Of a stretch of DNA of 57,211 bases, positions 10,549-39,610 are shown one piece after another. A program made the position numbers and the translations under genes. A model generated the notes under the pieces. That model saw only the letters and a program-made list of their open reading frames with translations. It was not told where the DNA came from and did not search any database. Each line of letters opens with the position of its first letter. The stretch's first letter is position 1. Source of the DNA: Vairimorpha necatrix (Eukaryota). Where the stretch lies: positions 1,054,001-1,111,211 of the forward strand of contig CP142734.1 of assembly GCA_036630325.1 (NCBI GenBank). Direction: 5' to 3'.

Positions 10549-10736
10549 AAAATTTTACCTTGATTCTTATATTTATAAATTACAAATTTTGATCATAATT
10601 AAATACGCAATAAAATACCTCTGCATAAGAATACATATGTTCCTTATGTTTTTTATATTTTACCGTAAGGGATTTTTATTATTAATTTACTCTACTATCT
10701 TTTAATAAAAAGTTATGAGTTTTGCAAAAACCTAAC

Positions 10737-11077
10737 TGTAGTATTACAAATACCACAAATAATTATTTTTTTTTATAAATTTCCCCTTTTTGGAAAATAG
10801 ACCGGTCGACCGGTCTATTCCAAAAATTAAATATTTATTTCTTTGTTGCCTGACTACCACCGGATGATGAAAGAGAACATCGATCAATTCCCTTGAAACA
10901 CAAGACCAAGGAAGGACTACAAAGCCGGGTACCAGACTCCCTATAGATATGTCCACCGAGGCTTTAAAACTAAAAATAATATATAATTTATTAGAACATT
11001 ATTTATCTAAAAGTAGTCATCTGGATTAAGTCACTGACGATCATTCGTTTATAATATTTTGTGGTATTATAACTACT
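10737..11077. mobile_element. Solo-LTR-like element (~340 bp)
   Basis: Starts tgtagt and ends actac(t), with ~25-bp imperfect terminal inverted repeats. Flanked by a near-TSD ctaac/ctaaa. GC-richer core containing a perfect 24-bp palindrome at 10796-10819. Confidence 0.5.
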
Positions 11078-11164
11078 CTAAAAAATAATTTTTCCTTCTT
11101 TATAATTACAATTTTAGAAAATAGTCATTTTGACCGTCCTATTTAAAAGCTATATATAATTTAT

Positions 11165-13460
11165 TTGGGTAATATATTCGGCTTATTAATTACTTTTCAC
11201 AAGATACGCTTACAGTCTCATCTGGCAGTTCCAGGACTCCCTTCTGAGATTTACTCATTGGGCTCTCGAAAACCCCTTCCTGATCTGTATCAAGCCCATG
11301 TCTGGCTGACATAGTTAGGCTTTCTAAAGTCATTTTAATGTTTCTTGACTGTATATATGCTTCCGTTCTGATTTCTAATCTGAGCACTTTGATATGCGTA
11401 CTATGAAAATTAGTTACTATTCCATCCCACGTCATCACATAAAGAATAAATTTCGGCTTGTATTTGTAGAGAGAAGCTACATGATTTGCTAGCAAGTCGT
11501 ATTTATGTTTCTTTTCTGTTTCTACTGCATGGAGGTCGTTAAAACTTGTGATTCCAACTTCTACAACGATCACTTCTTTTCTCAACTTGTCTACAATTAG
11601 TATATCAGGCTTGTTATACTTTTTTAAATACTTGAATGTATCCTACTGTCGACTCGTATCTCAACATACTCATTAGCTACACATTCCTGGACTGAATGAT
11701 TTCTAATTCTTTTGGCATGGGATAGACCATACGTCTTACACAACTGCAGGTGGATGCATCGCAGTGCCTCATTGTGCCGTCTCATGTAATCATGTGAAAG
11801 CATACGATCACATTGGGTAGCCATATTATTTACTGTCTTTGCATATTCATGGCAGTGTGGGCATTTTTTCTGCTTCTCTAAGAAAATATTTCGGTCCTGT
11901 AATGCACAAAAATTGCCTTCCTCTCTCGGGCTTATAATTTCTTTTTGTGAGCCACGTGGCAGCCTGTTTTATATCAATAAGTGAATCGTCTTTTGGTCTA
12001 AATAGCTTTGAATGGTTTGTTTTTATTTTTATATCGCTATAAAGAGATTCGGTTTGAGCCTCTATTAATATTTTAGCTGTTACGTTTTCCTTAAGTTTAT
12101 ATTTTTCTTTTAATATCCTTCTATGGTGGATAGATATGTATAGCCAGTTTTCTCAGAGTGGAAAATCGCTTTGCGTCTTAGAACAGATTCTTTCGTGCTT
12201 TCAAATTCTTTGGCTAGTTGTAAAAGCATTCTTTCACTTTTATGTTCTACGCATTGGAGCCCTCTTCCAAGTTCGGCTCTGGAGAGATATAATCTTTCTT
12301 TAGTTGCAGGTTGTTGATGGACGTGATATTTAATCAATAATTTTCTGATGTTGTCGTCTATGATCTTGTATTCTTCTGGTTCAGCATCTATTATTCCTAT
12401 ATAGTAATTTATTAGGCTTATTCCATGTTCATTGATTGCTTTAAACAAATGTTTCGCATTCGGCTTAGTTTTACATAACTTTTCGATTCTTATTTTGATG
12501 GCCTTCCATATTTTTTCCTTTGTTTCCTTCATTATCTTACCTTCGTGGATTTCCGTAATGCCTAGATATTTATACCCCTCATGCCCCTCTAGCAACTTGC
12601 CTTCATCTTTACACTTTATACTATTTGTAGCCGATTTTCCACGTTGATTTCTAGACCTACAGTATTAAAGAATTTTCTTGTCTCATCTATCATCTCTTTC
12701 AATACTTCCTCATTTTGACAAGAAATTTTAAATCGTCAATAAACAACAAATGGTTAGTTACAAATGCTAGTTCTCCCAACGGGATGCTTAACTTTGGGTA
12801 TATACTATTCAATTTACGACTTAGCGGGTCTATACACAGCTCAAACAATAACGGGGACAAACTATCTCCTTGTAATATTCCTCTTCTGACCTTCTTTTCC
12901 ATGATCTTCTCATTTCCTTCAAATATTTCTAGATTCCACTTGCTGGCCATTATTTCTATTGTCTTACATATCCACTCTGGTAGTCCCAGAGCTTTAATGC
13001 ATTTTATTAAATAGTCATGTCTTACTGAGTCATACGTCTTCTTAACATCTATCCAGGCCGGTTTAATTTTATAATTTTATTCTCTATTCAGCATGTAATT
13101 TGTCATTGCCTGTTCTTTAGCTCCCTGCACTTTCCTCTTTGCTCCCATCTGGTTATCTGCTAATAGAGAGTTTGATTCCACTAGTTCCTGGAGTAAGTAT
13201 GTAATACATTTTGTTGTAAGTTTGTACAAGTTGGACATACATGTAATGGGTCTAAAGTCTTATTCTTCCACTGGTTGCCCTTTAGGTATCAGATAAGTAA
13301 TTCCTCTGTAAAACCATTCTTCTTCCGTATAACTCTCCAGGCATATTTTCTTAATTACTTTGTAAAGAGATTCATGTAGGCTAGACGTTTTCTTTATAAA
13401 GAAATTATAGACTTTATCTGGACCTGCTGCTTTCCAGTTGGGCAGCCATCAAACAATGAA
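11165..13460 (-). mobile_element. 5'-truncated, degenerate non-LTR retrotransposon with restriction-like endonuclease (R4/Dong-like)
   Basis: Minus-strand fragments in order: LPNWKAAGPD, DFRPITCMSNLYK, WIDVKKTYDSV, GILQGDSLSPLLF, HLLFIDDLK (RT), YKYLG, RLYLSRAELGRGL, CPHC...NMATQC (CCHC with H replaced by N), RRHN and KPDILIVD...VEVG (RLE). Stop at 11190. Several frameshifts and stops. Confidence 0.9.
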
Positions 13461-14962
13461 ATTAAAATATTTATAAAAAAATAATAATGAAATATGATTC
13501 TTCAGTGATTTTTAAAATTTAATTTTTAGGGATGATTATTCAATCAGTTTAAAATTTTTTTGTATTATTAAATTTTATATAAAATTGCTAATTACCACAT
13601 ATTCTGATTTGACACAAGCATATATAAAGATGAGAGTCCTTAACGACTTCGAAAAATTTATATTTGTCAATCGGACATGGGCAGATACTGAGCAGGAAAG
13701 AGTGTTTTAAGGTCAATAAGAGAATTTTAGAAACCATCCGGGAACAGATGAAGAGATTTTGAATGCATTTTGTAAAGGTAATAAGTAATATGATATTATA
13801 CACAATTTGATCATACTGCTTTGATTAAATAATAGAGAAAGAAAAAATATATTATATTTTAAAATGGTATATATTAATATGGTAATAAAAAATGATAGCT
13901 ATTAATCGATGCTTATAAAATCTTTAATTAATGCTAATAAAAAAAAGTTAATCAGAAAAAAGTATCTTAAACAGAATATGACTTCACTTTTATTTAAAAT
14001 TTTTTTTTTGTTGTGGTGCACTTATATTATAGAAACACTTAATGAATTTTAGTGCAAAACTTTTCGAAGTCAAATTAATTAGAAATCGAAAATTTCTTTT
14101 TTACAAATTAAATAATTTTTGTACATACAATATTTTTAAAAGCCTAGGTTCTAGTACATTCGTAATTTCCAGATATATAATTTTTAATTTTAATCAATAT
14201 TAATAGCGTATTACATATAGCTGAGTATATTATAATTAGTCATAAAGAAATTTATAGAATTATATAATATGGAAAGATGAATTGCTTTCTTAATTTTATG
14301 AATTAATTGAACATCTATACGACCAATACAGCAGTTAATCACTTGAGTTTGCTGTAAATCTAATATCTAACATGCGTATAAATTGTTTGTAGAATCATTT
14401 AATTTTATTTTTATAATGTGTAACGATATTATAAGTTAAAATTTTAATTATACGATTTTAAAAAGCAAAATGCAAATGTAAATATTAGAAGTTTTAATAT
14501 ATAAGAACGATTCTTAAATAGAAAAAATTAACAAATTGCGCTTACCATTATGTGTTTTGTAAAAAATTTAATAACAGAGATGACCATACTATTACATATA
14601 ATAAGAGGATTCAATACACTAAATACTTTTTCAAGTACCATCTTCCAAGCAGATAATACAAAGTGAATAAAAGATTTAACGATGATAATCTATACGCTTT
14701 TAATATATTTTGAAGTATTAGTAGATAATCATAGAGTTCAAGTAGTTAAGATAAGACAAATTTTTTCATCAATCATACAATATTAAAAATTACCAAATTA
14801 AACCTTACAATAGCGAACTACACTTTGTTCGATTTTAAATAAAAATTTACGAACTTTTTTATATTTATAATTTCACTGTAAATAAATTTTTTAATCTGTT
14901 CATTATTTTTGCATTTGTATTAACAAAACAAATGTTTTTTTAAACTAATTCAATAATTTAAT

Positions 14963-16028
14963 GGCTAATATCAGCATCTGTGTAAAAAAACTGGGGGGTC
15001 AAAATTTTTAAAAAATTGCCCCTTTTTTTAAAAAACGAAGGGAATGATGAGCAATGAGGAAATTGAAGATTTTTATATATCTTTAACAAATAAAAAAAAA
15101 AATCAAAATGTATTAAATGTGGTTGGGATACAGCTATTGTATCAAATGAATCTGCTTACTTGAGGTGTAAGTCTTCAAATTGCAAACACAGATTTTCAAT
15201 TTGGAAAAATTCTTTGTTTGAAAACACTAGACTAGAACATTTACTGATGTTAAAAATAGTAAATTTGTGGATATTAGGAATTAAAGTAATTCTCATATCA
15301 AAGATTTTGGGATGTAATGTACAAAATGTAAGTTACACCCTAGATAAATTATATAAATTAAAAATTTATGATAAGTATTTGAACAAGGTGAAGCTCATAG
15401 GCGGCCAAGATATAATTGTAGAAATAGATGAAAGTAAAATTGGCAAAAATAAGCATCATAGGGGAAGATTAGTTATGGGGTTTTGGTGTTTCGGTATAGT
15501 GGAACGAACCGAAGCAAAGAAGATTGTATTCGTAATTATAAAGAAAAGAGACAGGGATACATTATTTCCAATCATGTTAAAGCATGTAAATTTTGAATCC
15601 GTAATTCATTCGGATATGTGGAGGGCGTATGCAACGTTAAAAAATCATTATGCGGACCATAGGACTGTGAATCACAGTCAAACTTTTAGAGACAGAGAGA
15701 CAGGTGTGCATAAAAACACAATAGAAGGGAATTGGAGGTCTTTAAAGGCCTCTATATCTAATAGGTGTAGGACTTATGAACTAGCCGAAATATATTTAGT
15801 TCTATATATGATTAAAAGAAATGAGAGCGAAGACATCTTCAAAGCATTATTAAAATTATGTTTTTAATATATTTTATTTATTTTAAAGTTAATTTTCATG
15901 CATTTTTATATCTTAATTACATTTTTTGTTTTTTCTGAAGTTTTCTCTTCCCTTCGTTTTTTAAAAAAAGGGGCAATTTTTTAAAAATTTTGACCCCCCA
16001 GTTTTTTTACACAGATGCTGATATAGCC
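14963..16028 (+). mobile_element. Merlin (ISXO2/IS1595-like) DNA transposon, 1,066 bp
   Basis: Near-perfect ~81-bp TIRs at 14963-15044 and 15948-16028 (GG...CC ends, one 1-nt indel). Perfect 9-bp TSD taatttaat at 14954-14962 and 16029-16037. Confidence 0.95.
15044..15867 (+). CDS. ISXO2/Merlin DDE transposase (1-nt frameshift in the A11 run at 15092-15102)
   Basis: Catalytic motifs VEIDES, IHSDMWRAY and HKNTIEGNW. An N-terminal Zn ribbon CIKC...CKSSNC lies in the same frame upstream of the called ORF. The ATG at 15044 follows gggA but is out of frame by one base. Confidence 0.88.
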
Positions 16029-19000
16029 TAATTTAATAAAGCACATCTGAATTATAGAGGAAATTATTCATCTTAATGATCGTCAATACTTACAAAAGTA
16101 TGAAACGCTTATATTTCATTTTGCACAATCTTTTAACAGTATTATTTACTATATTGAGAATAAATGATCTATATGTCTCGAAAAAATAGTATTGTAACAT
16201 ATTTAAATATCTTTTGTTAATCATAAAAATTTAATTTAGCAATCATGAATACCAACTCTTATGCCAATACATATTTTACACTATAAGTAGTCTTTTATAA
16301 ATATATTCCCTAATTTATATTGTTATGTGTATAATTAATTGTCTATTGATTAATTTAAGCAGGACTTAATCGTAAGCAAAATTCAAAAGCTCATATTGTA
16401 TATCATAACACTTACTTAAAAATGCTAAAAGTCATTACAAATATGCCGAAATATATATTATTTCTTTCTTATATTCTACCATATATTTTTTGATTAATAA
16501 AATTACAAATTTGTAAAATTGTGCATATTATTATAAACAACTATACAAGATTCTTAACCAGAGTAAGTTCAGTATTTCTATAATTAATAGGTCATTAATA
16601 AATTTATCTAATTGATTACGTAAAATTCTTAGTCTTACGTTAAAATCTTTCGAAATATTAGAAAAACTTAATTGCTTGATCATTAAACACACATACAAGC
16701 AAACAAAAGGTCTTTATATATTTAAATTATATAAATATAATCCTATTTAATATTTTAATACTAATTAGATACTTTCCTATTATTAATCTATTTTTCCTAC
16801 TTATTTCTATGTGTGATCTCACGATATTATAAGGGCTCTTATTTATTGCCAAAAATAAACAAATGGAAATTTTCGTTAAAATCCTGAATTGTTTAAAAAA
16901 TATTTTAAGACTATTATAATAATTATAGATATGGAATGCATAAAAATTCCTTCATCAGTATAAAACGTATATAAAATAACCATTTATTAACCAAATTGAT
17001 AATCTTGTAGTTAAAGTATCAAAAAACATCTTGTCTATTACTTTTAAATTTTATTCTAACAATATATAATTATTTATGGTAATTCAAACTAGAAAAATAT
17101 ATTTTTGCTTGAGGAGGAAAATAGAAATAAACAAATATGAAATAAATAATTATGTCTAATCGTTTTTATATTTAAAACGAAAAAATTTCAGCTGTAAAAT
17201 ATTTTATAAAATACAAATCATTTAAAGATGTTGAATTATTTATTTTTATATGCCTATACAATATTATATGAATATTAGCATATAAATTACGTTTTATTTT
17301 CTTACATATCAACATTCTAAAATCATGGAAATTTTTCGAGCACTTTGGACTTTAATTATATACTACTGCAAATGATTTTAATTAAATATTTACTAAATAT
17401 CAATTGTGCTGTCAAAATAAATTTTTTTTTGTAAGGAAATAAAAGTTTTTTATATAATCAAATTTTAACTGCTATATAAAATCGAACACTATAAACCATA
17501 TAAATTTACATATTTCTTTTTAATTTTCACAAAGCATTGTATTTCTATTCTTATATTTAACTAGAAATAAAGGGTATAGATTAAAAAAAAAACTTTAAAA
17601 AGTAATATACATGTGTTTTATTGCAATATTAATAAAATATATAATGTATTAGACGCAGATATGAAAAAATTATTGACTTGTCACGTGAGTTGATTAATAA
17701 TTTAATCTGTATAGACTATTTTATCGCTCTAAACAAATTTGAAAACAAAATTTTTAATTGTATAAATTGTAACTCTGTACATATTGAAAGGACTGGTTGT
17801 TACAGTATCTGATGATAATGTAAATTGCCTTTAATACAACAAAACAAACACTATGTAGCTACAGTTTATTATTAAAAAGCCGTAATTTAAAAAATTTGTC
17901 AGACTCCTCTTAGAATGATAAAAATATATAGATCAAATTTTTAAAATTATGTTAACTTAATAGTTTGTTTATAATACAATGATTGTTTGAAATTATATTT
18001 ATAATATTGCACAAGGATTTCTCCAAATTTGATACTATTATGTTTCTATGTGAAATTTGATTCAGTATATAGATACAATTAAGAAGTATAGGTTTGGACG
18101 GCTATTTATATATTTGTGTAGGCTAAATTATTTAAATATCAGAGATAGCAAATATTTTATAAAATTTTTAAAATAAAAAATTGTACATAATCTTTTATGA
18201 CTCTATTACTATTTGCAGGTTATTTTTTACAGAAAAGACCTAGTATTTGTATCAAAACAGAAAAAATTATACTTAAATAAAGGTCATAACAAATCTACCA
18301 AAAAAGCCATTGTAATGCACAAGTAAATTTAATATAACACAATAATGAACTTTAAAAAAAAGATCAAATCATAAATTCATATAATCCGTAATTGCAAAAA
18401 TTGATTTTAGAGTTACTTTATGTCAAGGACATATTTTGTGTTAAAAAAATTAAGTGTTTATAAGAACGTCATATACATAGTTAAACCTCATATACTATGT
18501 TTTTGTTAACTTTATATGGATTGTTAACTCTAATTTCGACACTAACGAAAACAGCCCATGTCATAACTCGTTTATAATAATAATTAAATCATTAAAACAA
18601 AGATTTTATTGTGTTTTTGATTGAATTTAAAAAAATGCTATAATAAATTATATCAATATATGAATCGTGTTTTATTTGCTATATTTGATTTGTCATTACA
18701 TCAGAATAGCTTTGTTGTATTGTCTTAAGACTTGCTTAAGGCTTTTTTTAGTTACTTTAAAATTACACCTACCACGCTTGTACAAATGATTTTATAAATT
18801 TTTGTATTTCTAATGATATTAGAAAATTTGGTGCATCATTTATAATAATTATATTGAGGTAAAATTTTTTTATAAATATTGCATGAATATTTTTGAGTTT
18901 TTCACTACACTATATATTTTATCTATCTAAATTAGCTTAAACATGATATATTGACGCAACGCATAATTAAACAAACAACATTAGCTTTTTAACTGTATGA

Positions 19001-22400: not shown

Positions 22401-23329
22401 TTTAATGTTTTTTAAGATAAGACATTATGACTGCAGAATGAATTTAAAAAATAAACTTATACAATAATAATACGATAAATGAAATCATTTAAAAATACAA
22501 ATTTGTACTTTTATTGATCTAGTGATAACTAACATCGCTTATAGATATTACTATTTTTTTTTGAACTGCTAAAATTAAAAATTTTATCATTTTTTTTGTT
22601 GAGAATATATATTTAATAAATTTAACCCTTAACTTACAATTATCTTTAACATGGTGGACAATAAAAAAAATGATCGAACCCAAACTTAAACAAAAGAAAA
22701 GGTTGTAAGTTCCGCCGAGGCATGAGACGTAAAAAAAATGCAGTATATGACAGATTGGGGTGTTGGACGTCTAACAGAAGAGAAGGTGATGCCTTGCATA
22801 TGTGAAGACTTAGAGTAGCTATGGATTGCTATTTGAAACAGTTTTGATCTTGTAAGATCTGACATTAAAGTTGTCGATATTGAGTGTAGTGGTAATCACC
22901 ATTAATATTAAAGCTATCGTGGGAAGATAGCTGAACCACCAGTATTCGAAATCCAGAGAGATATAAAAAGAGAAGAAAATCAAAAAAAAAAAAAACAGTG
23001 TTATAGTTGAATAATGAAATAGATAGATAAAATCATGGTTTTAATGTTAAGAAGACATGTTAAAATTTTTTTTCATGCTTATCGAGGAAATTTATTTCAA
23101 CAGGAAAGAAAGAACTGTAAAGACCAAAACAAGAGAAGATATTAAGATGCAAAAGAATAAAGCAGCCCATGGTCTGTTAAGATAAAATTGCACTATTATT
23201 ATGAGAGCCAAGTAGTGAGCGAGCTAAAAGTACAAATATATAAAATACTTAGTTGTAAATTCAGCGCGGGATGTTTAGAATATATATTTTATAAATTAAC
23301 CCTTCACATACATTTATCTTTAACAATAA

Positions 23330-23506
23330 GCCTTAAATTATGTTATTTTTTTTGTTTAAATAATTTTCTATAAATATCACATTAACACACAACTATTTCT
23401 GAATTATTATCACTATTAATCTTTATTCGCCTTCTTGTGCATATTTTTTATCCAAAAAATGAATTAGCTACTAAAATGTAAAATACAAACCCCCTTTTAT
23501 ATATTA
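23330..23506. repeat. Diverged ~208-bp tandem unit, left copy (interrupted by the Ty3 insertion)
   Basis: gccttaaattatgttatttttt...aatatcacattaa.ac.caactatttc...cgcctt...aaaaatgaatt.g.tactaaaat recurs at 26604-26780. Confidence 0.75.
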
Positions 23507-23544
23507 TGTTAACCATTTATATATTAAGGGTTCTAAACCCTACA
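23507..23544 (-). repeat. 3' LTR (38 bp)
   Basis: Minus strand tgtagggtttagaacccttaatatataaatggttaaca. Preceded by a polypurine tract at 23545-23554. Contains the integrase TAG stop. Confidence 0.9.
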
Positions 23545-24438
23545 TCCCCCCTCCAGACGGGTAGTCTCTCCATCTTCTAAACAACTCTTCCTTATCTCTT
23601 TCAAATCATAATGCCTCTTTTTAACAATTTTACCATCCAGTAGTCTCACAATATATGAATCATTTTCACTTATAGCTACGATCCTTCCGCGACCCGTGAA
23701 TCTTCCCTTGTCTGTTTTCGCACGTGTACTCAAATTTTCTCTCCTAGCGATTCTTACCTCTTGGCCTACTGTAAATGTCTCTCTGTGTCTTCTCTTGAAC
23801 CGACCAGCATATTTTCCATTTTCATCATTTTTAATTATAACTTCAGCAGTTTGATCTCTCCACGCTTCCATCGGCGTACATTTTATTGCTGTATGTAGTG
23901 TATTATTATATTCTTTGATTGCTCTTTCTATCTTTTCAGAAATATTCCCATCATTTTGCTTTATCAATGTCTCTCTTATAGTTCTGATGCATCTCTCGAT
24001 TCTACCATTACTCCTATGAGCTTCTAAGCCCACTTTCCTATGTTTAATATCATTAATACTACACCATTCTTTAAATCTATTACTTACAAACTCTTTTCCG
24101 TTGTCTGTCACATATTCCTCTGGAAATCCATCTTCCCTTATCCACTTTTGTAATACCTCTATAACTTCAATACTCTCTTTACATCTCAAATTCGAACCCC
24201 ACAACCTTCTAGTAAAGTAATCAATACCCAGTAACACATACCTATTCTCTCCACCTATGTCCATTAAATCCAACGCCACTTTCTCCAATTTCTTTTTAGT
24301 TACTACGAAATCACATCCTCCTGTGTTTTTCCTATTGTTAATCCCACATATTTCACAATTCTTAATTACCTTATTAATATGATCTTTCATACCAGGCCAA
24401 TACCATCTTTGTTTATTGTTATTAAGTGCCTTTGACAC
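23533..24438 (-). CDS. Ty3/gypsy integrase (frameshifted from the RT-RH ORF within the HHCC finger)
   Basis: WYWPGM...CEIC, then ALDLM, TDNGKEF and NGRIER with D-35-E spacing. The HH half (HEELNH) is at the end of the upstream ORF. Confidence 0.92.
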   Translation of the reverse strand: MSKALNNNKQRWYWPGMKDHINKVIKNCEICGINNRKNTGGCDFVVTKKKLEKVALDLMDIGGENRYVLLGIDYFTRRLWGSNLRCKESIEVIEVLQKWIREDGFPEEYVTDNGKEFVSNRFKEWCSINDIKHRKVGLEAHRSNGRIERCIRTIRETLIKQNDGNISEKIERAIKEYNNTLHTAIKCTPMEAWRDQTAEVIIKNDENGKYAGRFKRRHRETFTVGQEVRIARRENLSTRAKTDKGRFTGRGRIVAISENDSYIVRLLDGKIVKKRHYDLKEIRKSCLEDGETTRLEGGCRV

Positions 24439-26203
24439 CTCTATGGTTTAACTCCTCATGTACTCTTGTTATTTCATGTTCTCTACTATCTAGGCTCAAT
24501 ATCTCTTTCACCTCACCTGTGGAAAATTCCCAATACTGTTTACCGTCCTTTTCTTTAATATGTTGTTGCTTTTTTCCCAAAATTTGTTTTTCGATCACTT
24601 CTTTTCTCTTGTTGTCCTTTTCTTTTTGTTCATCCGAAACTTCTACCTGATCATACTGCCTACTTAACGCATCTGCATCTGTCATCAACTCCCCTTTCAC
24701 ATACTCTATTGTAAAGTCAGACTCTTGTATCTGTTCTACCCATCTGTTTATTCTGTTATTATTGAAGTATGGCTTATTTCTGATCTCTGCTAATGCTTTA
24801 TGATCCGTCATCAAATGAAATTTCCTTCCTCTCAAATCACTTTCAAACTTCTTTATTCCAAAAAACACCGCCAACATCTCCTTCTCACTTATCGTATATC
24901 TTCGCTCGGTAGGAGTCAACATTTTCGATGCCCATTGTATCGGAATCCACTCACCCTCTTTATTTTCTTGTAATAGAATTGCTCCGATCCCCGTATCACA
25001 CGCATCAGTTCTTACTCTAAATAACTTCTTTCCGTCCGGAATCTTCAACTTTTTCATATCTCTCAAGCCTTGCTTCATATCCTCAAAAGCTCTTTCCATA
25101 TCCTCCGTCCAATTCCACTTAACATCTTTCTTTAAAGCCTCAGTAAGCCTTACTGTTTTATACGCATAGTTGGGAATAAAGTCTCTAAACCAACCAGTTA
25201 GTCCTAAAAATCTTCTTAACTCTCTAACATTCTCAGGTTTTCTATATTCCAATGTCTCCTGCTTTTTAATCTCATTCGGTCCCATGACCTCCCCATTAAT
25301 TGTTACTCCCAGCAACATCACCTCATCTTTTTTGTATTGTATCTTTGTTTGGTTTATTCTCAACCCACACTCTTTAAACTTTTTAATTACCCTCTCTAGT
25401 AACTCGTCATGCACTCTTACGTCTTTACCATGAATAACTATATCATCCATATATACTTCCACGCCTTTACCTCTAAATTCATCTAAAACTCTGTTCATTA
25501 CTCTCTGCATTATATGAGGCGAATTCTTAAACGACATAACCATACTATTCCATTCGTATACTCGACCATTCACTTCAAATGCCGTTTTGAGCTTATGGTG
25601 CTCCTCAATCTCAATATGATAAAACCCTTCTTTTAAGTCGATAACCGTAAATACTTTTGACCCCTGTGTGGCTCTCATAATATCCTTAATTAACGGTAGT
25701 GAGTACGGGTCCTTGTCAACCAAATCGTTTAACGCCATCAAATTGCTTACCAATCTTACGTCCCAATTTGGTTTTTCAAGTGCTCTTATTGGACTCCTCC
25801 ACTCACTTTTGGAACGTCTTATAACCCCTCTATTTTCCAACTTATTCAAGTACTCCTCAAATTTCACCCTAAGGTAGTATGGCACATTCTGCCCTATTTT
25901 CACAACCTTTTCACCTTGCTTAGTATTTATTGGACACTTCTCTCCTGTGAGATATTTTATCTTTTCTTCTGATTCTTTAAAAACTTCCAGATACTTTTCA
26001 ATTAAATTTTCTAACTTATTTACTGTTTTACATCTTTTCCCTTCATTGTTGATAATTGGTTCTTTCTGTAAAACTTGTTCCTTTTTAATTTTATATTTTT
26101 CCCTACCAGCTACACTTTCATGACATTCTCTAGCGTAATGCCCTTCTTTCTTACATATAAAACATTTTGTAGTTTCTCTGATTTCTCTTCTTTTCCTATA
26201 CAT
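24422..26203 (-). CDS. Gag zinc knuckle + reverse transcriptase + RNase H
   Basis: CFICKKEGHYAREC knuckle; RT motifs IDLKEGFYHI and YMDD; RNase H motifs TDAC, EKEMLAV and TDH. No aspartic protease motif between the knuckle and RT. Confidence 0.93.
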   Translation of the reverse strand: MYRKRREIRETTKCFICKKEGHYARECHESVAGREKYKIKKEQVLQKEPIINNEGKRCKTVNKLENLIEKYLEVFKESEEKIKYLTGEKCPINTKQGEKVVKIGQNVPYYLRVKFEEYLNKLENRGVIRRSKSEWRSPIRALEKPNWDVRLVSNLMALNDLVDKDPYSLPLIKDIMRATQGSKVFTVIDLKEGFYHIEIEEHHKLKTAFEVNGRVYEWNSMVMSFKNSPHIMQRVMNRVLDEFRGKGVEVYMDDIVIHGKDVRVHDELLERVIKKFKECGLRINQTKIQYKKDEVMLLGVTINGEVMGPNEIKKQETLEYRKPENVRELRRFLGLTGWFRDFIPNYAYKTVRLTEALKKDVKWNWTEDMERAFEDMKQGLRDMKKLKIPDGKKLFRVRTDACDTGIGAILLQENKEGEWIPIQWASKMLTPTERRYTISEKEMLAVFFGIKKFESDLRGRKFHLMTDHKALAEIRNKPYFNNNRINRWVEQIQESDFTIEYVKGELMTDADALSRQYDQVEVSDEQKEKDNKRKEVIEKQILGKKQQHIKEKDGKQYWEFSTGEVKEILSLDSREHEITRVHEELNHRGVKGT

Positions 26204-26544
26204 CCTAAGATTTTTTCTTCCCTAAACTCTTTCAACACTTTATACATAATCTCTTTAATCATTTCTTGTCTTTCTTCTGACTCTCTCTCAAATTCTGCTC
26301 CTTTTTGTAAGCCTTTATAAATTTCCTCCCAACTGCTCCTTCCGTCACAAAAATTTTCAAAAATATAATCCTGCAAGTTCGCAGATGCCAAATCCATAAC
26401 ATCTTTCCACTCAACTTTCTCAACTTTCAATATTAACTTTAGTCCCTTATCTATCCTAATTGCCTCTTTCTCTAATGTTCTAGCCTCTTGACTACGGGAC
26501 TCTCTTGTTTCCCTGTTCATCCTTGTGTTCGCCATGTTAACCAT
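26110..26544 (-). CDS. Short Gag N-terminal portion
   Basis: ORF starts inside the 5' LTR and overlaps the next ORF. An A6 run near 26212-26217 is the probable frameshift site. Confidence 0.65.
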   Translation of the reverse strand: MVNMANTRMNRETRESRSQEARTLEKEAIRIDKGLKLILKVEKVEWKDVMDLASANLQDYIFENFCDGRSSWEEIYKGLQKGAEFERESEERQEMIKEIMYKVLKEFREEKILGCIGKEEKSEKLQNVLYVRKKGITLENVMKV

Positions 26545-26572
26545 TTATTTATTAAGGGTTCTAAACCCTACA
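26535..26572 (-). repeat. 5' LTR (38 bp)
   Basis: Copy of 23507-23544 with one substitution, followed on the minus strand by TGG (PBS, ~26521-26534). Confidence 0.9.
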
Positions 26573-26603
26573 TTAAATAAAATTCTAAAAATATAAATCT
26601 TAG

Positions 26604-26780
26604 GCCCTAAATTATGTTATTTTTTGATTCTACTAATATTTTATCAATATCACATTAAGACTCAACTATTTCGCAATTAGAAGCAAAGTATTTAATTATC
26701 GCCTTGTTTGTAAATTTAATATTTTTAAAAATGAATTCGTTACTAAAATATGATCACAAAGATCTTATTTATATTTATTA
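26604..26780. repeat. Diverged ~208-bp tandem unit, right copy
   Basis: Colinear diverged match to 23330-23506. Confidence 0.75.
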
Positions 26781-28711
26781 AATTTATTTGATTCAAAATA
26801 GAAAAATTTTAAAAATTCAATATAATGGTATAAATTATATATAAAGCTGAAGAATATATAATATTCAAAAACATAACTTTTTTCAAAAATTTTATTACAA
26901 CACAAAACAAAAAAAAACTAGTTACTTACAAAAAGAAATTTATTGATTTGTTTTAGCTATCACGAAAAATAAAAGAAGTGTAAACTAAAAGATTTAATAA
27001 GTATTATTAGTTATATATTGCCTTTTTTAGGTTAATGTGATATATTCAACAAACTATTATTACAGTTATATAAAAATTCAAAATTCAACATTTATATTCC
27101 TTTTATAAAACCGAATCATTTTTACGTACTATCATGATTGACACACCTCAGGCTTTCCAAAATCCTATCAATTATACATACGTATTCACAGCTTTACGGT
27201 TCTCAGATATAGGTCCATAAAATAATATATCCAACAAATTACATCATAATAATAAAAAACTAAATTAAATAATGTTTGCTAAAACTTGTTATTATGATTT
27301 TTTTACAATAAGAATTAGTTCAAATTTATAAAATAAAAGTTTTAATACTTTAATAAGACATAAGATTTTTGAATTTAATTGTTTTACGAAATAGTGTAAT
27401 GGACTAAATCATAATGAACATTGTGTAATGAACATAAACCTTACATAAAGAAATATATATTTAATAAATATATTAAAGATAGATAAATATATTATGCTCA
27501 TGTAATGATAAAATAATATAGACCACAAAGTAGTGCTTTAAATATAACTTTAGTATGTGATAAGCATACAATTGATAATGTATTTTTTTTCCTTAAGATG
27601 AAGTTAATTACAAATACAAAAACCTACGTAGTTAGAATTTGGAGAATTAGTTTAATGATGAGATAGGTAAATGACTGCTATAGATAAACATTTCAAATTT
27701 AAGATTCTTATTTAATAATTTAATTGATCCAACAAAATTTAAAATAAAAAGCAAAATTAATATCATATGCTACATTTTATAATTTATTTTTGTTATCCAT
27801 ATAAATTTTTAATAGCAAAAGATATACTACAACTATACATTTAAATACACCTTACCTTCTAGTTCATGTTACTGTGTATATACCAAGAATCAAAAAGTAG
27901 AAGATCTCATTATTTAACTTTATTATATTGAAATTCCTTAAGTTTTCTAATTAAATCATTTAAAAGACAAATAACTATATAGATACAAGTTATGGGAATT
28001 AAAAAAAAATATATTTAATAAAAAAATGTGTTCTAGGAAATAATTAACAATAAATTTATAGAAAATGTAATAATAAATTATCCTTCTCATAAATCTAAAT
28101 TACAAAATAAAATTTTTTGATTCAGATATAGCTTACATTTATATATTAATAGATAAAATATTTTACAAATGTTATATATGCTTTTCTTTGCGATCGTTTA
28201 CTGGGAGTTTAAACAAATTTTTAAATTTATCCCATAAAGAGTAATTTCTTTCCGTATCGAATTACCAAACTAATTCGATTATAAGTTTTATTATCGAAGG
28301 ATAGTATTGCAGAACATTTTAAAATTTTTGTATAACACTGGTCTGTATAGATGACACAGTCCAAAATTTGGCTTAAGTCTATTGCATATATTCTCAAATA
28401 TTACATTATTTAGATTTTAAATTACGTTTCCTAAATAAATAGTTGTAAACTAGTCGACAGAATCTGTGATAAAAGATTATATTGCATTGTATTCATAATA
28501 TCATAATTAATTCAATACAACGTACGTTTGAATAGTATTTATATTAATTTATTCGAAACAAGAATTTAACTTAGCAAACAATTATGAGTATATTTTATAA
28601 CTAAGTGATATGATAATATAATAAATAACAAAAAACATGGAATTTTATTTTGTATATTAAGTCAATTTTTGTGTTAACTGAAAAAAACTTTATTGAGAAT
28701 CGTTTTTCTTG

Positions 28712-29334: not shown

Positions 29335-31165
29335 CATATAAGAAGGAACAATGTCGTAAAATTAAAAATATCTAAGACTTCATATAAATCTATATTATTG
29401 TTATATAAGTGACATTTGTGTATCTTTTTTTGATTTTAAAGCATTTATGAAATTTGCCATTTTCATCTCCTTCTTGTATATATGTATATAAGAAGACAAA
29501 TCTTGCAAAATATGAAAAAATTAAGAACTTCTGAAAATGCTTATAAATTCATATTATTGCCATATAAGTACTTTTTTGTATCTTTTTTTGTTTTAAAGCA
29601 TTTATGAAATTTGCCATTTTCCATCTCCTTCTTGTATATATATATAAGAAGACAAATCTTGCAAAATATGAAAAAATTAAGAACATCTAAGACTACATAT
29701 AAATATATATTATTGGTATATAAGTGAACTTTGTGTGTCTTTTTTTGTTTTTGAGCCATTTAAAAGATTTGTTATTTTTCCATCTCTTTCTTGTATATAT
29801 ATATATATATATATATATAAGAAGACAAATCTTGCAAAATATGAAAAAATTAAGAACAGCTGAAAATGCATATAAATTCATATATTTGTTATATAAGTAC
29901 TTTTTTGTATCTTTTTTTGTTTTAAAGCATTTATGAAATTTGCCATTTTCCATCTCCTTCTTGTATATATATATAAGAAGACAAATCTTGCAAAATATGA
30001 AAAAATTAAGAACATCTAAGACTACATATAAATATATATTATTGGTATATAAGTAAACTTTGTGTGTTTTTTAAGTTTTTGAGCCATTTATGAAATTTGC
30101 TATTTTCCATCTCCTTCTTGTATATATATATAAGAAGACAAATCTTGCAAAATATGAAAAAATTAAGAACAGCTGAAAAAGCAAATAAATACACCTTATT
30201 GTTATATAAGTACTTTTTCTGTATCTTTTTTTGTTTTTAAAGCATTTATGAAATTTGCCATTTTCCATCTCCTTCTTGTATATATATATAAGAAGACAAA
30301 TCTTGCAAAATATGAAAAAATTAAGAACATCTAAGACTACATATAAATTCATATTATTGTTTTACAAGTACTTTTCAACATTCTTTATTTGTTTTTAAAG
30401 CTTTATGAAATTTGCCATTTTTCCATCTCTTTCTTGTATACATATATAAGAAGACAAATCTTGAAAAATATGAAGAAAATTAAGAACAGCTGAAAAAGCA
30501 AATAAATACACCTTATTGTTATATAAGTACTTTTTCTGTATCTTTTTTTGTTTTTAAAGCATTTATGAAATTTGCCATTTTCCATCTCCTTCTTGTATAT
30601 ATATATAAGAAGACAGATCTTGAAAAATATAAAAAAATTAAGAACATCTAAGACTACAACTAAATTCATATTATTGTTTTACAAGTACTTTTCAACATTC
30701 TTTATTTGTTTTTAAAGCTTTATGAAATTTGCCATTTTTCCATCTCTTTCTTGTATACATATATAAGAAGACAAATCTTGAAAAATATGAAGAAAATTAA
30801 GAGCAGCTGAAAAAGCAAATAAATACACCTTATTGTTATATATGTACTTTTTCTGTATCTTTTTTTGTTTTTAAAGCATTTATGAAATTTGCCATTTTCC
30901 ATCTCCTTCTTGTATATATATATAAGAAGACAGATCTTGAAAAATATAAAAAAATTAAGAACTTCTGAAAATGCATATAAATACACATTATTGCTATATA
31001 AGTGACTTTTTATGTTTTTGTGCCATTACAAGATTTGTCATTTTTTCATCTCCTTCCCGTATATCTATATAAGAAGACAGATCTTGAAAAATATAAAAAA
31101 ATTAAGAACATCTAAGATTACATATAAATTCATATTATTGTTATACAAGTACTTTTTGTGTATAT
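29335..31165. repeat. Tandem satellite, ~159-bp monomer, ~12 copies, ~317-bp higher-order dimer
   Basis: Recurrent (ta)n-aagaagacaaatcttg.aaaatatgaaaaaattaagaac. Monomers alternate between atctaagactac and a/t-gctgaaaa.gc variants. Duplicated ORF artefacts are offset by 317 bp (30403/30720). Confidence 0.95.
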
Positions 31166-32478
31166 ATATGCGTACTTATTAGTTTATTATATTTTATTTT
31201 TTCTTTAAGTGAATCAAAGTATGTCTTTCTTATATAGATTTATAAACAGAATGATTCTAAAAGTTTCTTGTGTAAACGTGGTTGTTTTACGATTTAAAAT
31301 TCTAACATAAGAATAAAATTGAAAATGAATACTAATTGGTAAAAAATCTTATTATAATGATTAAATATTTTAAAAACTCCCAGAAACAATCTCTATTTTA
31401 ATTACAATTACATCTAAATATATATACAAGTCTTTAAGTATCAGCAATATTTCTAATTTTTTTGGCTAATGGAAAGTCTCTATGTATATTTGTTCATGAG
31501 AGAGATAATGAACACGAAAAAAGGAGAAATTGACATCTCATAAAAACTAGTGAAAATAACATATGTATATATGTAAGTAGATTGTGAAGTTTTTTTTATT
31601 AATTAAAACCTTTATTATATACATGATTTTAATTTTTTTAAAGGGTATCTATCTGCATATATATATATATATATATATAAAAGTACAAAATAAAAAACTT
31701 AAAAATCAAGAACAATATACATAAATATTAGTGCAGTGAAATTTATTGTATTGAAATAATAGAACTTTCTATATGGTAACAAATATTATATAAGTATTTT
31801 TATGTAATAAAACATTCAATTATATAATTATTGCCAGTATCAACACATAGAATAAATAGATTTTGAATTAAACAAATCAGAATATAATTTGTGTATAAAT
31901 CAGTAACAAACATTTTTTGAATTTAAAGATGAATTCTTATTATTGGAATACATCGAGGTATATTAGAAAGAATATAATCGTGGATAAAAAACAACCAATA
32001 CCCCATTGGAAAACAATACTGTATAAAAATACAACACTTTAATATAATATAGAACGAAATTTAAATATTATGTAGATTTTATATTTTATTCATCTAATAC
32101 GAGTGAGCGATTATATAAATGTATCGAAAATAAACACAATTTCAATTAAGAATTATAGCAAAATCTCATATGTACGTATGTATGAATTTAACATTGAAAT
32201 TATCATAAATTATAATTTTCATACAAAAATGTAGATATTATCGTAGCCAATCAAATACTGATCAATCATATTCTCACAAATTGGCTAAAAAAAGTATTTA
32301 GAAAAATTTCTAAAAGAGGGCATGGAAAATAAGATTAAAGAAATTTGCATATTTCAAATAAAAATGATCTTATAAAATCATGTAATTATATTATATAATT
32401 GTATAATTTTTTGCATAATTTAATGAAAATTTTTAAAAAAATAAGCTTGAATAAGAATTTTCATATTTATAAAAATTA

Positions 32479-35317: not shown

Positions 35318-38300
35318 ATGTTTACGAAAAATCAAACAAAAAATGATTGTAGTAAGCAACCCAAAGCAAACGTCACTATCTCTCAGGAGATAAGTAGTAA
35401 TACTGAAAACAACAATGTTGTTTTCTATGAAGCCAAGACATCTGTAAATAGCACTAAAAATAAAAAAACAAATGCTGGAGAAACAAAAAAAAGGAATTCT
35501 ATATTCAGTTTCTCTAGCGAAAACAAAACGGCCCAAGAAACAGAAGAAACAATCATGAGAATTAATAACACTAAGATGGATGCTTTGACGGAGATTCTAG
35601 ATGTAGCTTGCAGAATCAGTACTAGAAACCATGCCGAACATTATTGTGGAGATCTCAAAGAAGAATGTGGCTTTTGTGGTGCATTACATTTTGCTGGAGA
35701 AGCAAGCAGTAATGGATTATACAAAAGCTGCTGTCATTTTGGGAAAGTTAAATTACAAAGAACAAGAGACTTCCCAGACGACATTAAGAATTTATATATA
35801 GGAAAAAATAAAGATGCAAAAAACTTCAGAGACAATATTAGATCCTACAATGCTGCTCTTTCTTTTGCTTCTCTTGGTGCTCAAATAGAAACTGTGTCTA
35901 ATGGTCCATATGTATTCAAAATACATGGACAAGTGTATCATAACACTTATAATGTAAATAATATGGACTCTAATACACCAAAGAAGTATGCTCAATTATA
36001 TGTAGTAGATAGTGATATGGCAAATGCCCAAAGAATGACGAATCCATCTAATAGAAATTGTAATATATATATCATGAGCAAATTAGATGGATTTATAAGA
36101 TCTGCCAATCCATATTCCGATGCATATAAAAATATGTCTGAAGTAATTAAGGAGCAAAGGGAGTTGGGAAAGGAAGTTAAAGACATTTCCATGGTCTTTA
36201 ATAAAAATTTAGAAAGAGATCAGAGAAGGTATAATGCTCCCTCTACAAGTGAAATCGCAATGATTTTCACTGATCCAAATGGAGAACCACCATTTGAAAG
36301 GGACATTAAAGTATATAGCAAGGGTCTTAGTTCTGATAATTTACATTTGGATATTTTAAGTTCACATTTAGATCCAATGACATATACTTTGTTCTATCCA
36401 CATGGCGAAGCTGGATGGAACGCAAATTTAAGGATTGAGTCTTATCATGGGGAATCACAGAAGATATCTTTACTACAATATAAAGTAGCACAAATATCTA
36501 TAAGAAAAGATAAGTTCAATCCTTTACTCTATGGAGGGAAGTTGTTTCAACAATGGATTGTAGATTCATATCTACAAGTAGAAGCAAACAACTTGAACTT
36601 CATAAAGTTAAATCAGAAGAAGTTGAGGGTAGATCTTTACAAAGGCTTAGTAGATTATATTAATAATGGAATAGAAAGTAATGCTAAGCCTGTAATTTTA
36701 CCATCAAGCTTCCAGGGATCTCCAAGAAATATGAGGGAAAGATACCACGATGCAATGTCTATCGTAAGAAATTTCGGCAAGCCCGATCTTTTTATTACTA
36801 TGACTTGCAATCCAAATTGGAAGGAGATAAAGGAGAATCTATTTGGGGGACAAACTGCAGTTGATAGGCCTGATTTGGTAGCAAAGGTCTTTAACTTGAA
36901 ATTAAAAAGCATGATGGAGGAGATTTTGTCAGGAAGAGTATTTGGGGAAGTTGTGGCTCATGTCTATTCCATTGAGTTCCAAAAACGTGGACTTCCTCAT
37001 GCTCACATATTGATAATGTTAAAGGATAAGATTCGGGATGAAGAAAGAATAGATAAGTATGTGAGTGCAGAAATACCATCACCCATGGACAATGAGATGT
37101 TACACAACTGTGTAACAAAACATATGATTCATGGACCATGTGGATTAAGTTACTTGACAAGTCCATGCATGGAAAATGGTGTCTGCACGAAAGAATATCC
37201 CAAAGAATATAACTTTGAAACAAAGATAAATAATGACGGATATCCTGAATACCGAAGAATAAGAGGGACCGAGTACAATGTAAGGGGGAACATTGTTACT
37301 AATGCTAACGTGGTCCCCTATAATGCTTATTTGCTTGAAAAATACAACTGTCATATCAATGTAGAAGTTTGTACTTCTATTAAGTCAGTTAAGTATATTT
37401 TCAAGTATATTTACAAGGGATTTGATTGTGCAGAAATGAGAATAACTGACAACAACGAAATTGATCATTTTGTGAATTCCAGATATGTTTCAGCACCTGA
37501 GGCTACCTGGAGATTAATGGAATACAAGATGCATGGGAGATCTCATAAGATCCATAGACTTCCTGTGCATCTTCCACAAGAACACTTGATCTCTTTCGAA
37601 GAAGGGAAAGAAGAGGAAGCTGTTAGATTATCTGATCTTAGACAGACTCCTCTTTTAGCTTACTTCAAATTAAATGAAGTCGATGAAGGGGCACATCAAT
37701 TTTCGTATAGTGAGATACCCTATCACTATACATATAAAAAAGGGGAATGGATAAGGAGAAAGAATAAGTATAGTAAGATAATTACTAGATTATATTCTGT
37801 ATCACCAACAGAAAAGGAAAGATTTAGCCTCAGAGTCCTATTGATCAATGTAAAGGGGGCTAAATCATATGAGGATTTGAGAACTGTAAATGGTGTAGTT
37901 TACAGTTCCTTTGCAGAAGCAGTGGAAGAGAGAGGACTTCTTCAAGATGATAAAGAATGGGAAAGGGCTTTAGATGAGGCAGTGGCAACCGAGTCCCCAT
38001 CAATAATAAGAGCATTGTTTGGATATATTTGTGCTTTTAATAAGCCAAAAAATACCAAAGAGCTCTTTGAGAAGTATCTTGAAGATATGTCTGAAGATCT
38101 AGATCAGAATAGTAGAGACGAAATATTAAGTAGATTAAAAGATATTGTCAATGCTCATGGATGGAGTCTAAATGCTCTGGGTTTAGATGAGCCGATTAAC
38201 TATATCGTGAAGGCAAAAACTATCTCTGATAATGGAAAAGATCTAGATCAGATGATCTCCTCTCTAAATGCAAAACAGAGGGATGCTTTTGATAAAATAA

Positions 38301-39610
38301 CAGATAATATTGATAAAAAGGGCAATTTATTCTTTTTAGATGGACCAGCTGGATCGGGGAAGACGTATTTATACAATGTCCTGGTTGAGTATCTAAGTAA
38401 GAATGGGAAATCTTCAATTCAAATGGCAACCACAGGTATTGCTGCAGATCTGCTAAAGGATGGAAGAACAATGCATAGCTGTATGAAACTTCCTGTTCCT
38501 TTGACAGAGACCAGCGTATCTAGATTAAAAAGAAATACTCCTGAAGCAGAGAAAATAATAAAGGCCTCATTATTGCTGATAGATGAAGTTTCGATGATGT
38601 CAAAACATGCATTGGACGTAATAGATGAGGTGCTTAAAAGACTCTGTAATAATAATGATATCTTTGGAGGGAAGACTTTATTATTGGGTGGTGATTTTAG
38701 ACAAACATCAACCATTGTAATGAAGGGTACTCCAAATGATATCATCGAGAACTCATTAATTAGTTCAAGACTTTTGGTACATGTCTGTGTACTAAAGCTT
38801 GAAACGAATATGAGATCTTATAATCAATTGGAGTTTAATAAGTGGTTGTTAGATATAGGCGAGGGGCGTACTAGAGATAGTAAAGGATGTGTGGAGATAC
38901 CCAAAGAATATCTTGAAGAAGGGAACATAGTCGATAACATTTTTGGAACAATCAAAATTGAAGCAGGTGATGATTCTTTGTTTGATAAGATTATCTTAAC
39001 GAGCAAAAATGAACATGCAAATGAATTGAATGCCAAAGTGATAAACCTACTTAATGGATCTTCGAGGGTATATGTGAGTTCTGATGCTATAGAATCAGAG
39101 GATATCGAAGAACAACTGAGATTTCCTCTTGAGTTCTTGAACATGCAACAGCCATCAGGACTACCTCCACATAAGTTAGTATTGAAGACAGGGGCAATAG
39201 TGATGTTGTTACGCAATATTGATCCTAAGAATGGATTATTAAATGGGACCAGATTAAAGATAAAAGGTCTTAAAGATAATTACATCTTAGGTGAAATAAT
39301 AACAGGAAGGGGAAGGGGCACCCTTGCTGTTATACCAAAAATAGACATGATGCCAAGTGACACTCTTCTTCCGTTTGTACTTAAAAGAAGACAGTTTCCT
39401 GTGGTATTGTCATATGCGATGACAATACATAAAGCACAGGGACAGTCTTTTGATAAAGTAGGAGTATACTTGCCTGAGGATGTATTTTCTCATGGTCAAT
39501 TATACGTAGCTTTGTCAAGAGTGAAGAAGAGTGAAAACTTGAGAGTCAAGTTGGGGGGAAACAGGGGCAATGTCAAAAATGTAGTTCTACATGAACTAAT
39601 TGGCTCATAA
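35318..39610 (+). CDS. Helitron RepHel transposase (HUH Rep + PIF1-like SF1 helicase), 1430 aa, intact
   Basis: N-terminal CGFC...CC motif. Rep motifs DLFITMTCNPNW, EFQKRGLPHAHIL and KYIFKYIYKG. Helicase motifs GPAGSGKT, LIDEVSM, GDFRQ, TIHKAQGQS and GQLYVALSRV. ccccatt precedes the ATG. Confidence 0.97.
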   Translation: MFTKNQTKNDCSKQPKANVTISQEISSNTENNNVVFYEAKTSVNSTKNKKTNAGETKKRNSIFSFSSENKTAQETEETIMRINNTKMDALTEILDVACRISTRNHAEHYCGDLKEECGFCGALHFAGEASSNGLYKSCCHFGKVKLQRTRDFPDDIKNLYIGKNKDAKNFRDNIRSYNAALSFASLGAQIETVSNGPYVFKIHGQVYHNTYNVNNMDSNTPKKYAQLYVVDSDMANAQRMTNPSNRNCNIYIMSKLDGFIRSANPYSDAYKNMSEVIKEQRELGKEVKDISMVFNKNLERDQRRYNAPSTSEIAMIFTDPNGEPPFERDIKVYSKGLSSDNLHLDILSSHLDPMTYTLFYPHGEAGWNANLRIESYHGESQKISLLQYKVAQISIRKDKFNPLLYGGKLFQQWIVDSYLQVEANNLNFIKLNQKKLRVDLYKGLVDYINNGIESNAKPVILPSSFQGSPRNMRERYHDAMSIVRNFGKPDLFITMTCNPNWKEIKENLFGGQTAVDRPDLVAKVFNLKLKSMMEEILSGRVFGEVVAHVYSIEFQKRGLPHAHILIMLKDKIRDEERIDKYVSAEIPSPMDNEMLHNCVTKHMIHGPCGLSYLTSPCMENGVCTKEYPKEYNFETKINNDGYPEYRRIRGTEYNVRGNIVTNANVVPYNAYLLEKYNCHINVEVCTSIKSVKYIFKYIYKGFDCAEMRITDNNEIDHFVNSRYVSAPEATWRLMEYKMHGRSHKIHRLPVHLPQEHLISFEEGKEEEAVRLSDLRQTPLLAYFKLNEVDEGAHQFSYSEIPYHYTYKKGEWIRRKNKYSKIITRLYSVSPTEKERFSLRVLLINVKGAKSYEDLRTVNGVVYSSFAEAVEERGLLQDDKEWERALDEAVATESPSIIRALFGYICAFNKPKNTKELFEKYLEDMSEDLDQNSRDEILSRLKDIVNAHGWSLNALGLDEPINYIVKAKTISDNGKDLDQMISSLNAKQRDAFDKITDNIDKKGNLFFLDGPAGSGKTYLYNVLVEYLSKNGKSSIQMATTGIAADLLKDGRTMHSCMKLPVPLTETSVSRLKRNTPEAEKIIKASLLLIDEVSMMSKHALDVIDEVLKRLCNNNDIFGGKTLLLGGDFRQTSTIVMKGTPNDIIENSLISSRLLVHVCVLKLETNMRSYNQLEFNKWLLDIGEGRTRDSKGCVEIPKEYLEEGNIVDNIFGTIKIEAGDDSLFDKIILTSKNEHANELNAKVINLLNGSSRVYVSSDAIESEDIEEQLRFPLEFLNMQQPSGLPPHKLVLKTGAIVMLLRNIDPKNGLLNGTRLKIKGLKDNYILGEIITGRGRGTLAVIPKIDMMPSDTLLPFVLKRRQFPVVLSYAMTIHKAQGQSFDKVGVYLPEDVFSHGQLYVALSRVKKSENLRVKLGGNRGNVKNVVLHELIGS

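Follow-up and report, generated by a model that had tools for sequence, protein, structure and literature searches.

A defective Ty3/gypsy-type element with 38-nucleotide long terminal repeats in Vairimorpha necatrix and its likely family of very compact relatives

Long terminal repeats (LTRs) of retroelements are normally hundreds of bases long and hold the promoter (U3), the R region, U5 and the ends recognised by the integrase. In a stretch of 57,211 nucleotides from the microsporidian Vairimorpha necatrix (GenBank assembly GCA_036630325.1, contig CP142734.1, positions 1,054,001 to 1,111,211 of the forward strand; called the window in the following, with position 1 being its first letter) there is on the minus strand, at 23507-26572, an element of 3066 bp whose LTRs measure 38 nt. 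The locus raises the question whether repeats of this size can be the true and functional LTRs of a retroelement. We consider it likely that a real family of very compact Ty3/gypsy-type elements, present in multiple copies, lives in microsporidia of the Nosema/Vairimorpha type, and that the element is one of its defective members. Intact members would have a length of ~3.05-3.15 kb, LTRs of 38-55 nt with the transcription start inside the LTR and a short R, and one polyprotein of ~1000 amino acids (aa) with the order Gag(CCHC)-reverse transcriptase-RNase H-integrase and without a protease.

The two repeats are sharply defined. The 38-nt string TGTAGGGTTTAGAACCCTTAATAAATAAATGGTTAACA (minus strand) is found without mismatch at 26535-26572, the 5′ LTR, and with a single mismatch at LTR position 24 (identity 37/38) at 23507-23544, the 3′ LTR; no third site exists in the window at ≤3 mismatches, and two or more matches were obtained in 0 of 100 shuffles. 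A repeat finder reports 40 nt, that is the 38-nt LTR and one base on each side that matches by chance. The LTRs begin with TGT and end with ACA. At its inner side the 5′ LTR terminates with GTTAACA and is directly followed by TGGCGAACACAAGG (26521-26534), which resembles a primer-binding site (PBS) and reads in frame as (M)-A-N-T-R, and the 3′ LTR is directly preceded by the polypurine tract GGAGGGGGGA, which is part of a 24-nt block GAGACTACCCGTCTGGAGGGGGGA (23545-23568; in frame ETTRLEGG). The 5′ LTR contains a CCC at positions 15-17, an AATAAATAAATG block and, at positions 29-31, the in-frame ATG of gag, and the stop codon TAG of the integrase frame is located in the 3′ LTR at positions 10-12 (23533-23535). 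These two codons enclose all of the element except its first 28 and its last 26 nt. A second ATG straddles the junction between the 5′ LTR and the TGG. An earlier note on this DNA, written from the letters alone, had reported the 38-bp TG...CA direct repeats, the adjoining TGG and polypurine tract, the start and stop codons within the LTRs and the length of 3066 bp. All of this stands, the coordinates being exact and the repeats matching twice only in the window.

Pfam domains follow each other on the element in the order zf-CCHC, RVT_1, RT_RNaseH, Integrase_H2C2 and rve. The nucleocapsid-like CCHC zinc knuckle (26123-26167) comprises residues 13-27 of an open reading frame (ORF) of 593 aa, and its C, C, H and C columns are invariant in the alignment of the relatives. 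The same ORF contains the reverse transcriptase (RVT_1, residues 140-302, 25298-25786, E 2.8e-28) and the RNase H (RT_RNaseH / RT_RNaseH_2, residues 365-494, 24722-25111, E 6.4e-30). The integrase with its H2C2 zinc-binding domain and the rve catalytic core (24037-24432) is encoded by the next ORF. Judged by the domain order, the ends, the polypurine tract and the relatives described below, the element is to be classified as Ty3/gypsy-type.

The coding sequence had been described previously as running from LTR to LTR. This holds for the start and stop codons, which do lie inside the LTRs, but not for the continuity of the frame, since the window copy has its coding sequence split over two frames and three ORFs (144, 593 and 301 aa). 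The gag-like ORF of 144 aa, opened by the ATG in the LTR, extends from 26544 to 26110; 110 of its residues (26215-26544, predicted to be all-helical) are in frame before the first break. The break sites are found near 26213 (26213-26214, at the join of gag and pol) and near 24422 (24422-24423, at the join of RNase H and integrase), both within the open overlap of neighbouring frames. We aligned Logan contigs of four public runs, stemming from four studies, to the region 22500-27600. In all four runs the contigs carry 7 more bases behind 26213 and 2 more bases behind 24422 than the window. With these additional 7 and 2 bases frame arithmetic places gag, pol and integrase in one frame of ~1006 codons from the LTR ATG to the LTR TAG, in agreement with the relatives of 976-1031 aa found on contigs of ~3.1 kb. 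It is the window copy, or its assembly, that deviates, and with its two frame breaks this copy is defective.

The same runs also speak for the existence of further copies. At least one contig of run X3 follows the element and departs from the window sequence at 26574 into unlike sequence. In run X1 the unitigs 23516-25178 and 25149-26552 have a word depth of 61-65 compared with 7-19 in the flank unitigs, a depth that is not to be equated with copy number. These unitigs break inside the 38-nt repeats, in line with what repeats of that length should do in a 31-mer graph.

If the short repeats are genuine, they should not be peculiar to this copy. We compared 29 full-length relatives of 934-1036 aa, 19 of which are encoded on contigs of 3035-3192 nt. 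For 18 of the 29 the contig has a size of 3.03-3.16 kb, the ORF a length of 987-1031 aa, and 25-100 nt are left outside the ORF; there is therefore no room for ordinary LTRs. The N-termini point in the same direction: 21 of the 29 begin with M-A/G or with a leader of 3-30 residues followed by [N/H/Y/D]-M-A/G, the translation of the junction AC A/TGG C in frame, and the other 8 do not. At the C-terminus 11 of the 29 have the pattern ET(T/P)..GG(D/C/M), which is the polypurine tract in frame, the other 18 stopping earlier.

Two groups of metagenomic contigs allow the ends themselves to be inspected. The relative L001, with 67% aa identity, is a contig of 3024 nt from a bacterium-labelled bin. 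Its 3′ end shows the block GAGACTACCCGTCTGGAGG(A)GGGGA followed by a 38-nt TG..CA stretch, which equals the LTR of the window at 29 of 38 positions, and then an AT-rich flank unrelated to the window. The 24-nt block of L001 differs from that of the window by a single additional A; L027 and L035 have close variants of it, and the polypurine tract is kept in L001, L027, L035 and L047. In the bin G002 contig C80 reads flank, a 47-nt LTR TGTTATAG...GATCACA and then TGGCAACACCGATC, and contig C451 reads GAGACTACCGTCTCGAGGGGGGA, the LTR of C80 at 46 nt and a flank differing from that of C80. The inner sides are TGGCAACACC and GGGGGGA, respectively, and the outer flanks are unrelated. In the G002 family the architecture thus recurs with an independent LTR sequence, and the similarity ends exactly at TG and CA.

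The earlier note had named two observations that would speak against it, namely long LTRs in other family members and similarity between copies extending past the TG..CA ends. Long LTRs were looked for and not seen in the relatives: the LTR has 38 nt in L001, 46/47 nt in G002 and 54/55 nt in a neighbouring element of the window (see below), and to these are added the 18 of 29 relatives on short contigs. Similarity past the ends was likewise looked for, and in the copies examined there was none, the X3 contig leaving at 26574 and the outer flanks of G002 being unrelated. Other copies are seen among the contigs of the four runs, and relatives in the metagenome contigs of L001 and G002. Sequence and relatives agree on a streamlined Ty3/gypsy-type structure with 38-nt LTRs and an ORF reaching from LTR into LTR.

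The best named protein matches are from Nosema granulosis (78%), and others come from Vairimorpha, Pseudoloma, Enteropsectra and Nematocida. The family proteins are already present in public databases under generic names, the sources (Nosema granulosis and others) calling them 'Tf2', '17.6', 'gypsy' or 'opus' polyproteins. Two relatives of 50% identity from metagenomes (L003, L004) are without a 3′ end and hence give no LTR pair; the distant L005-L009 (26-31% identity) stood outside the LTR comparison. The bins G001 and G002 contain 52 and 16 matches, and the reading covered those with ends belonging to this family, namely L002, L017, L027, L035, L047, L048 and L051; no recognisable element end was found in L048 and L051. 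A pattern search in viral contigs gave 32 matches, none of them a relative.

Two side observations concern these sources. G001 and G002, which are labelled Clostridium sp. and Turicibacter sp., contain many retroelement contigs including members of the microsporidian family, and this suggests AT-rich eukaryotic DNA binned together with low-GC bacteria. In L004, at 540-1100, a gag fragment in inverted orientation, which has an LTR/PBS junction of its own (TTTCACA/TGGCACC, minus strand), abuts the plus-strand pol of the relative with 50% identity; either the fragment was inserted by rearrangement or nesting, or the contig is chimeric.

How could so short an LTR serve replication? The three LTR sequences (window, L001 and G002) have in common the TGT start, the ACA end and a GCC/CCC which is followed 3-5 nt later by TAAATAAATG. 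This block combines an AT-rich stretch, the hexamer AATAAA and the start codon. According to the part of PMC2685015 available to us, CCC is enriched just upstream of microsporidian start codons in the range -10 to -3. Transcription could begin within the 5′ LTR a short way upstream of the ATG, with GCC/CCC-N(3-5)-TAAATAAATG as candidate signal of this pre-start-codon kind. Microsporidian 5′ leaders are only a few bases long. The RNA would read through the 3′ LTR, R would then be formed by the final 10-30 nt of the LTR, with next to nothing left for U5; retroviruses tolerate an R of ~12-15 nt. A tRNA would anneal at the TGGC and prime minus-strand DNA, which would be transferred to the 3′ copy via the short R, GGAGGGGGGA would prime the plus strand, and the integrase would act on the TGT...ACA ends. 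The polyprotein would function unprocessed or be cut by a host protease. From the sequence we infer that promoter, poly(A) signal and R would all be accommodated within 38 nt.

The priming tRNA was sought in several places. There is no tRNA in the window, an Rfam scan of the whole window gave 0 matches, and no tRNA was found in the 10 loci fetched. The 11-nt complement of the G002 PBS has three exact matches in all, the PBS itself and two sites without a following gag-like start. Self-priming of the kind known from Tf1 was considered as well: in the window element as well as in G002:C80, LTR and PBS region share no Watson-Crick run longer than 4 nt, and a run of this length is equalled in 349 of 500 and 440 of 500 shuffles, respectively. 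The complementarity is no more than expected by chance and gives self-priming no support.

A hairpin AGGGTT/AACCCT within the LTR had been pointed out in the earlier note as one of the compressed signals. The hairpin is present (-5.9 kcal/mol), but it is no better than what shuffles give (z -0.24; an equally good or better fold is reached by 78 of 200 shuffles). It is weaker in L001, and the 46-nt LTR of L027 has no hairpin at the corresponding position. As a special feature of the LTR the hairpin was therefore dropped, being a chance-level fold which is not conserved in the 46-nt LTR.

Several observations weigh against our interpretation. The CCC of the LTR begins 14 nt before the ATG and consequently falls outside the range -10 to -3 given in the part of PMC2685015 available to us, and the mismatch at position 24 of the 3′ LTR in the window destroys both AATAAA hexamers. 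The LTR lengths of the relatives were derived from one end only, from two ends belonging to different copies or from the size of the contigs, and the depths in run X1, being contig word depths, are no measure of copy number. None of the 40 Rfam tRNA matches in G002, mostly in clusters resembling bacterial operons, ends at a match to the PBS complement. Within the window there is no solo LTR, and the window copy has no target-site duplication of 4-6 bp; only TAA is common to both flanks, for which the chance estimate in such AT-rich DNA is roughly 0.04, and this is a single mutated copy. Finally, a direct repeat with 75% identity over 154 nt is present at 23327-23477 and 26601-26749, outside both LTRs. 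In our reading the repeat is a local one, and the element was inserted within it or next to it, which does not explain its presence on both sides; it may represent a preferred insertion target or have arisen by local duplication.

Among the alternatives the one that survives best accepts the 38-nt repeats as true LTRs serving strand transfer and integration, with attachment (att) sites and R only, and has the element transcribed without a promoter of its own by read-through from host or transposon promoters. The little room for a promoter in 38 nt, the CCC outside the range found for microsporidian genes and the unremarkable hairpin are in keeping with this. By established retroviral logic, however, an RNA begun upstream would lead to strong-stop DNA ending in the flank and unable to pair at the 3′ LTR. 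Moreover, TAAATAAATG with GCC/CCC a few bases before it has been kept in the LTRs of the window, L001 and G002, which differ otherwise, and the family has spread over many sites and hosts. We regard a promoter-less LTR as unlikely.

The repeats in the flanks could also be taken as diverged LTRs of ~150 nt, or as split direct repeats, in which case the true ends would be further out and the 38-nt repeats internal. The flank repeats are indeed direct and are found 29 and 28 nt outside the 38-nt repeats. Yet an order of flank repeat, 38-nt repeat, 38-nt repeat and flank repeat fits no LTR or split-repeat layout, and it is the 38-nt repeats and not the flank repeats that the TGG and the polypurine tract adjoin. 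Moreover, the X3 contig departs before the second flank repeat is reached, the depth of 61-65 of the X1 unitigs falls to 13-19 outside the 38-nt repeats, and the flank repeat is missing beside the copies of X3, L001 and G002, the flanks of the latter two being unrelated to it. Ends beyond the 38-nt repeats are very improbable in our view. Least credible of all is a dead relic in which the short repeats are the leftovers of long LTRs after deletion: the window copy is defective with its two frame breaks and has no clear target-site duplication, but both remnants would have had to retain the identical 38 nt with TG..CA ends next to PBS and polypurine tract, and relatives at 44-83% aa identity have equally tiny LTRs or no room for longer ones.

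The compact Ty3/gypsy-type family that we favour is unusual also in its protein. The 25 families listed at E ≤ 1 across the 29 members include no retropepsin, and the other 39 families match at most one member each. In the window ORF the zinc knuckle and the first conserved pol block are no more than 37 residues apart. As far as the sequences can tell, the family is without a recognisable protease. More distant matches, e.g., P0076 and P0086, carry the protease domains PF00077/PF13650/PF13975. Including the knuckle gag has ~150 aa. Its first 110 aa were modelled with a predicted local distance difference test score (pLDDT) of 85.5 as two long and two short helices. Foldseek gave no match to this 110-aa gag model at E ≤ 0.001. 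With VIA-align the C-lobe of Arc was found at rank 17 (Z 5.6, root mean square deviation 3.1, 63 aligned), amid unrelated helical hairpins at Z 5-6.2.

The G+C content of the window is ~22%, and from 54645 to the window end at 57211 there is an irregular, telomere-like TAGG/TTAGG array of ~585 units over ~2.5 kb. TTAGG is described as the telomeric repeat in Encephalitozoon, Ordospora and Vairimorpha necatrix (PMC12449221, in the part available). The setting is a transposon-rich microsporidian chromosome end. Other features of the window are an intact Helitron-type ORF of 1430 aa with Helitron_like_N and PIF1 helicase domains at 35318-39610 (plus strand), an ORF of 206 aa with an ISXO2-like (IS1595-type) DDE transposase domain at 15247-15867 (plus strand) and, between retroelement and Helitron, a tandem array at 29358-31239 with a period of ~158 bp (and 317 bp) and 7-11 units. 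DNA transposons of the Merlin type have been reported in microsporidia.

The closest neighbour is itself a small LTR element. At 22597-23325 (plus strand) a non-coding sequence of 729 bp is bounded by TG..CA LTRs of 55 and 54 nt with 89% identity to each other, whose inner sides adjoin TGGTGGACAAT and GCGCGGGA, respectively. The left flank repeat described above begins directly after the 3′ LTR of this mini element. The left part of the mini element has a very high word depth in run X2 (850-18,000). The PBS-like start resembles that of L017 (TGGTGGAGAC, the PBS starting with TGGTGGA) and not that of the element at 23507-26572. The mini element is probably a non-autonomous partner of a sister family with an L017-like PBS.

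A wider claim can be put forward tentatively, with a chance that we place somewhat short of even. The elements would form a widespread microsporidian lineage and be the smallest autonomous LTR elements seen so far (~3.05-3.15 kb, no protease); their LTRs of 38-55 nt would hold att sites, transcription start, R, start codon and stop codon, R would not exceed 20-30 nt, and the relatives would mobilise 0.7-kb non-coding partners such as 22597-23325.

With the known Ty3/gypsy elements (Metaviridae) of microsporidia (PMC4202319) the element shares the order CCHC-RT-RNaseH-integrase, the TG..CA ends, the TGG at the 5′ LTR, the polypurine tract at the 3′ LTR and the microsporidian hosts. It differs from the usual Ty3/gypsy element in that the LTRs measure 38-55 nt and not hundreds, there is no protease, gag comprises ~150 aa, and one ORF makes up ~98% of the element and overlaps both LTRs. 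The family may already be contained in the consensus set of PMC4202319 with its short LTRs unremarked; the available passages of that paper give no LTR lengths. In tomato an LTR of 194 bp, that of TARE1, has been termed 'very short' (PMC3701649, available in part). The shortest LTRs that we found in print, with only part of the source available, are the 85-bp LTRs of FRetro129, a SMART element of grasses published as the smallest LTR retrotransposon with 292 bp and a target-site duplication of 5 bp (PMC3281118). FRetro129 likewise has very short LTRs with TGT...ACA ends but is non-coding and non-autonomous, whereas the element described here has LTRs of less than half that length and yet encodes its own reverse transcriptase and integrase. 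SMART and TRIM elements find a closer counterpart in the non-coding neighbour of 729 bp (22597-23325).

A single gag-pol ORF is also found in Tf1/Tf2, and some sources name relatives of our element 'Tf2'. Tf1/Tf2 of fission yeast are self-priming Ty3/gypsy elements in which the RNA start must pair with the PBS; Tf1 encodes a protease, and its LTRs measure a few hundred bases. In contrast, the present element has no protease, an LTR of 38 nt and an LTR/PBS complementarity at chance level. We found no description of such short microsporidian LTRs in the literature, a weak basis for calling them unpublished because supplements and Repbase were outside the search. New here are the two frame breaks with an intact frame in other samples, the lack of a recognisable protease and the hairpin at chance level.

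Elements of this kind would be easily overlooked. The minimum LTR length of LTR finders is usually well above 38 nt, and such elements would consequently be scored as LTR-less fragments; for LTR_FINDER the minimum had to be lowered to 50 bp in the work on FRetro129 (PMC3281118, available in part). The relatives surfaced as contaminant contigs in bacterium-labelled bins. A family with 38-nt LTRs is a natural minimal system for asking how little each step of replication needs, and that the coding sequence overlaps both LTRs and the family does without a protease is part of its interest as such a system. If the LTRs truly carry all functions, they would mark a new minimum for the cis-acting sequence that LTR retroelements require. 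The element also extends the compaction of microsporidian genomes to the genome's own parasites.

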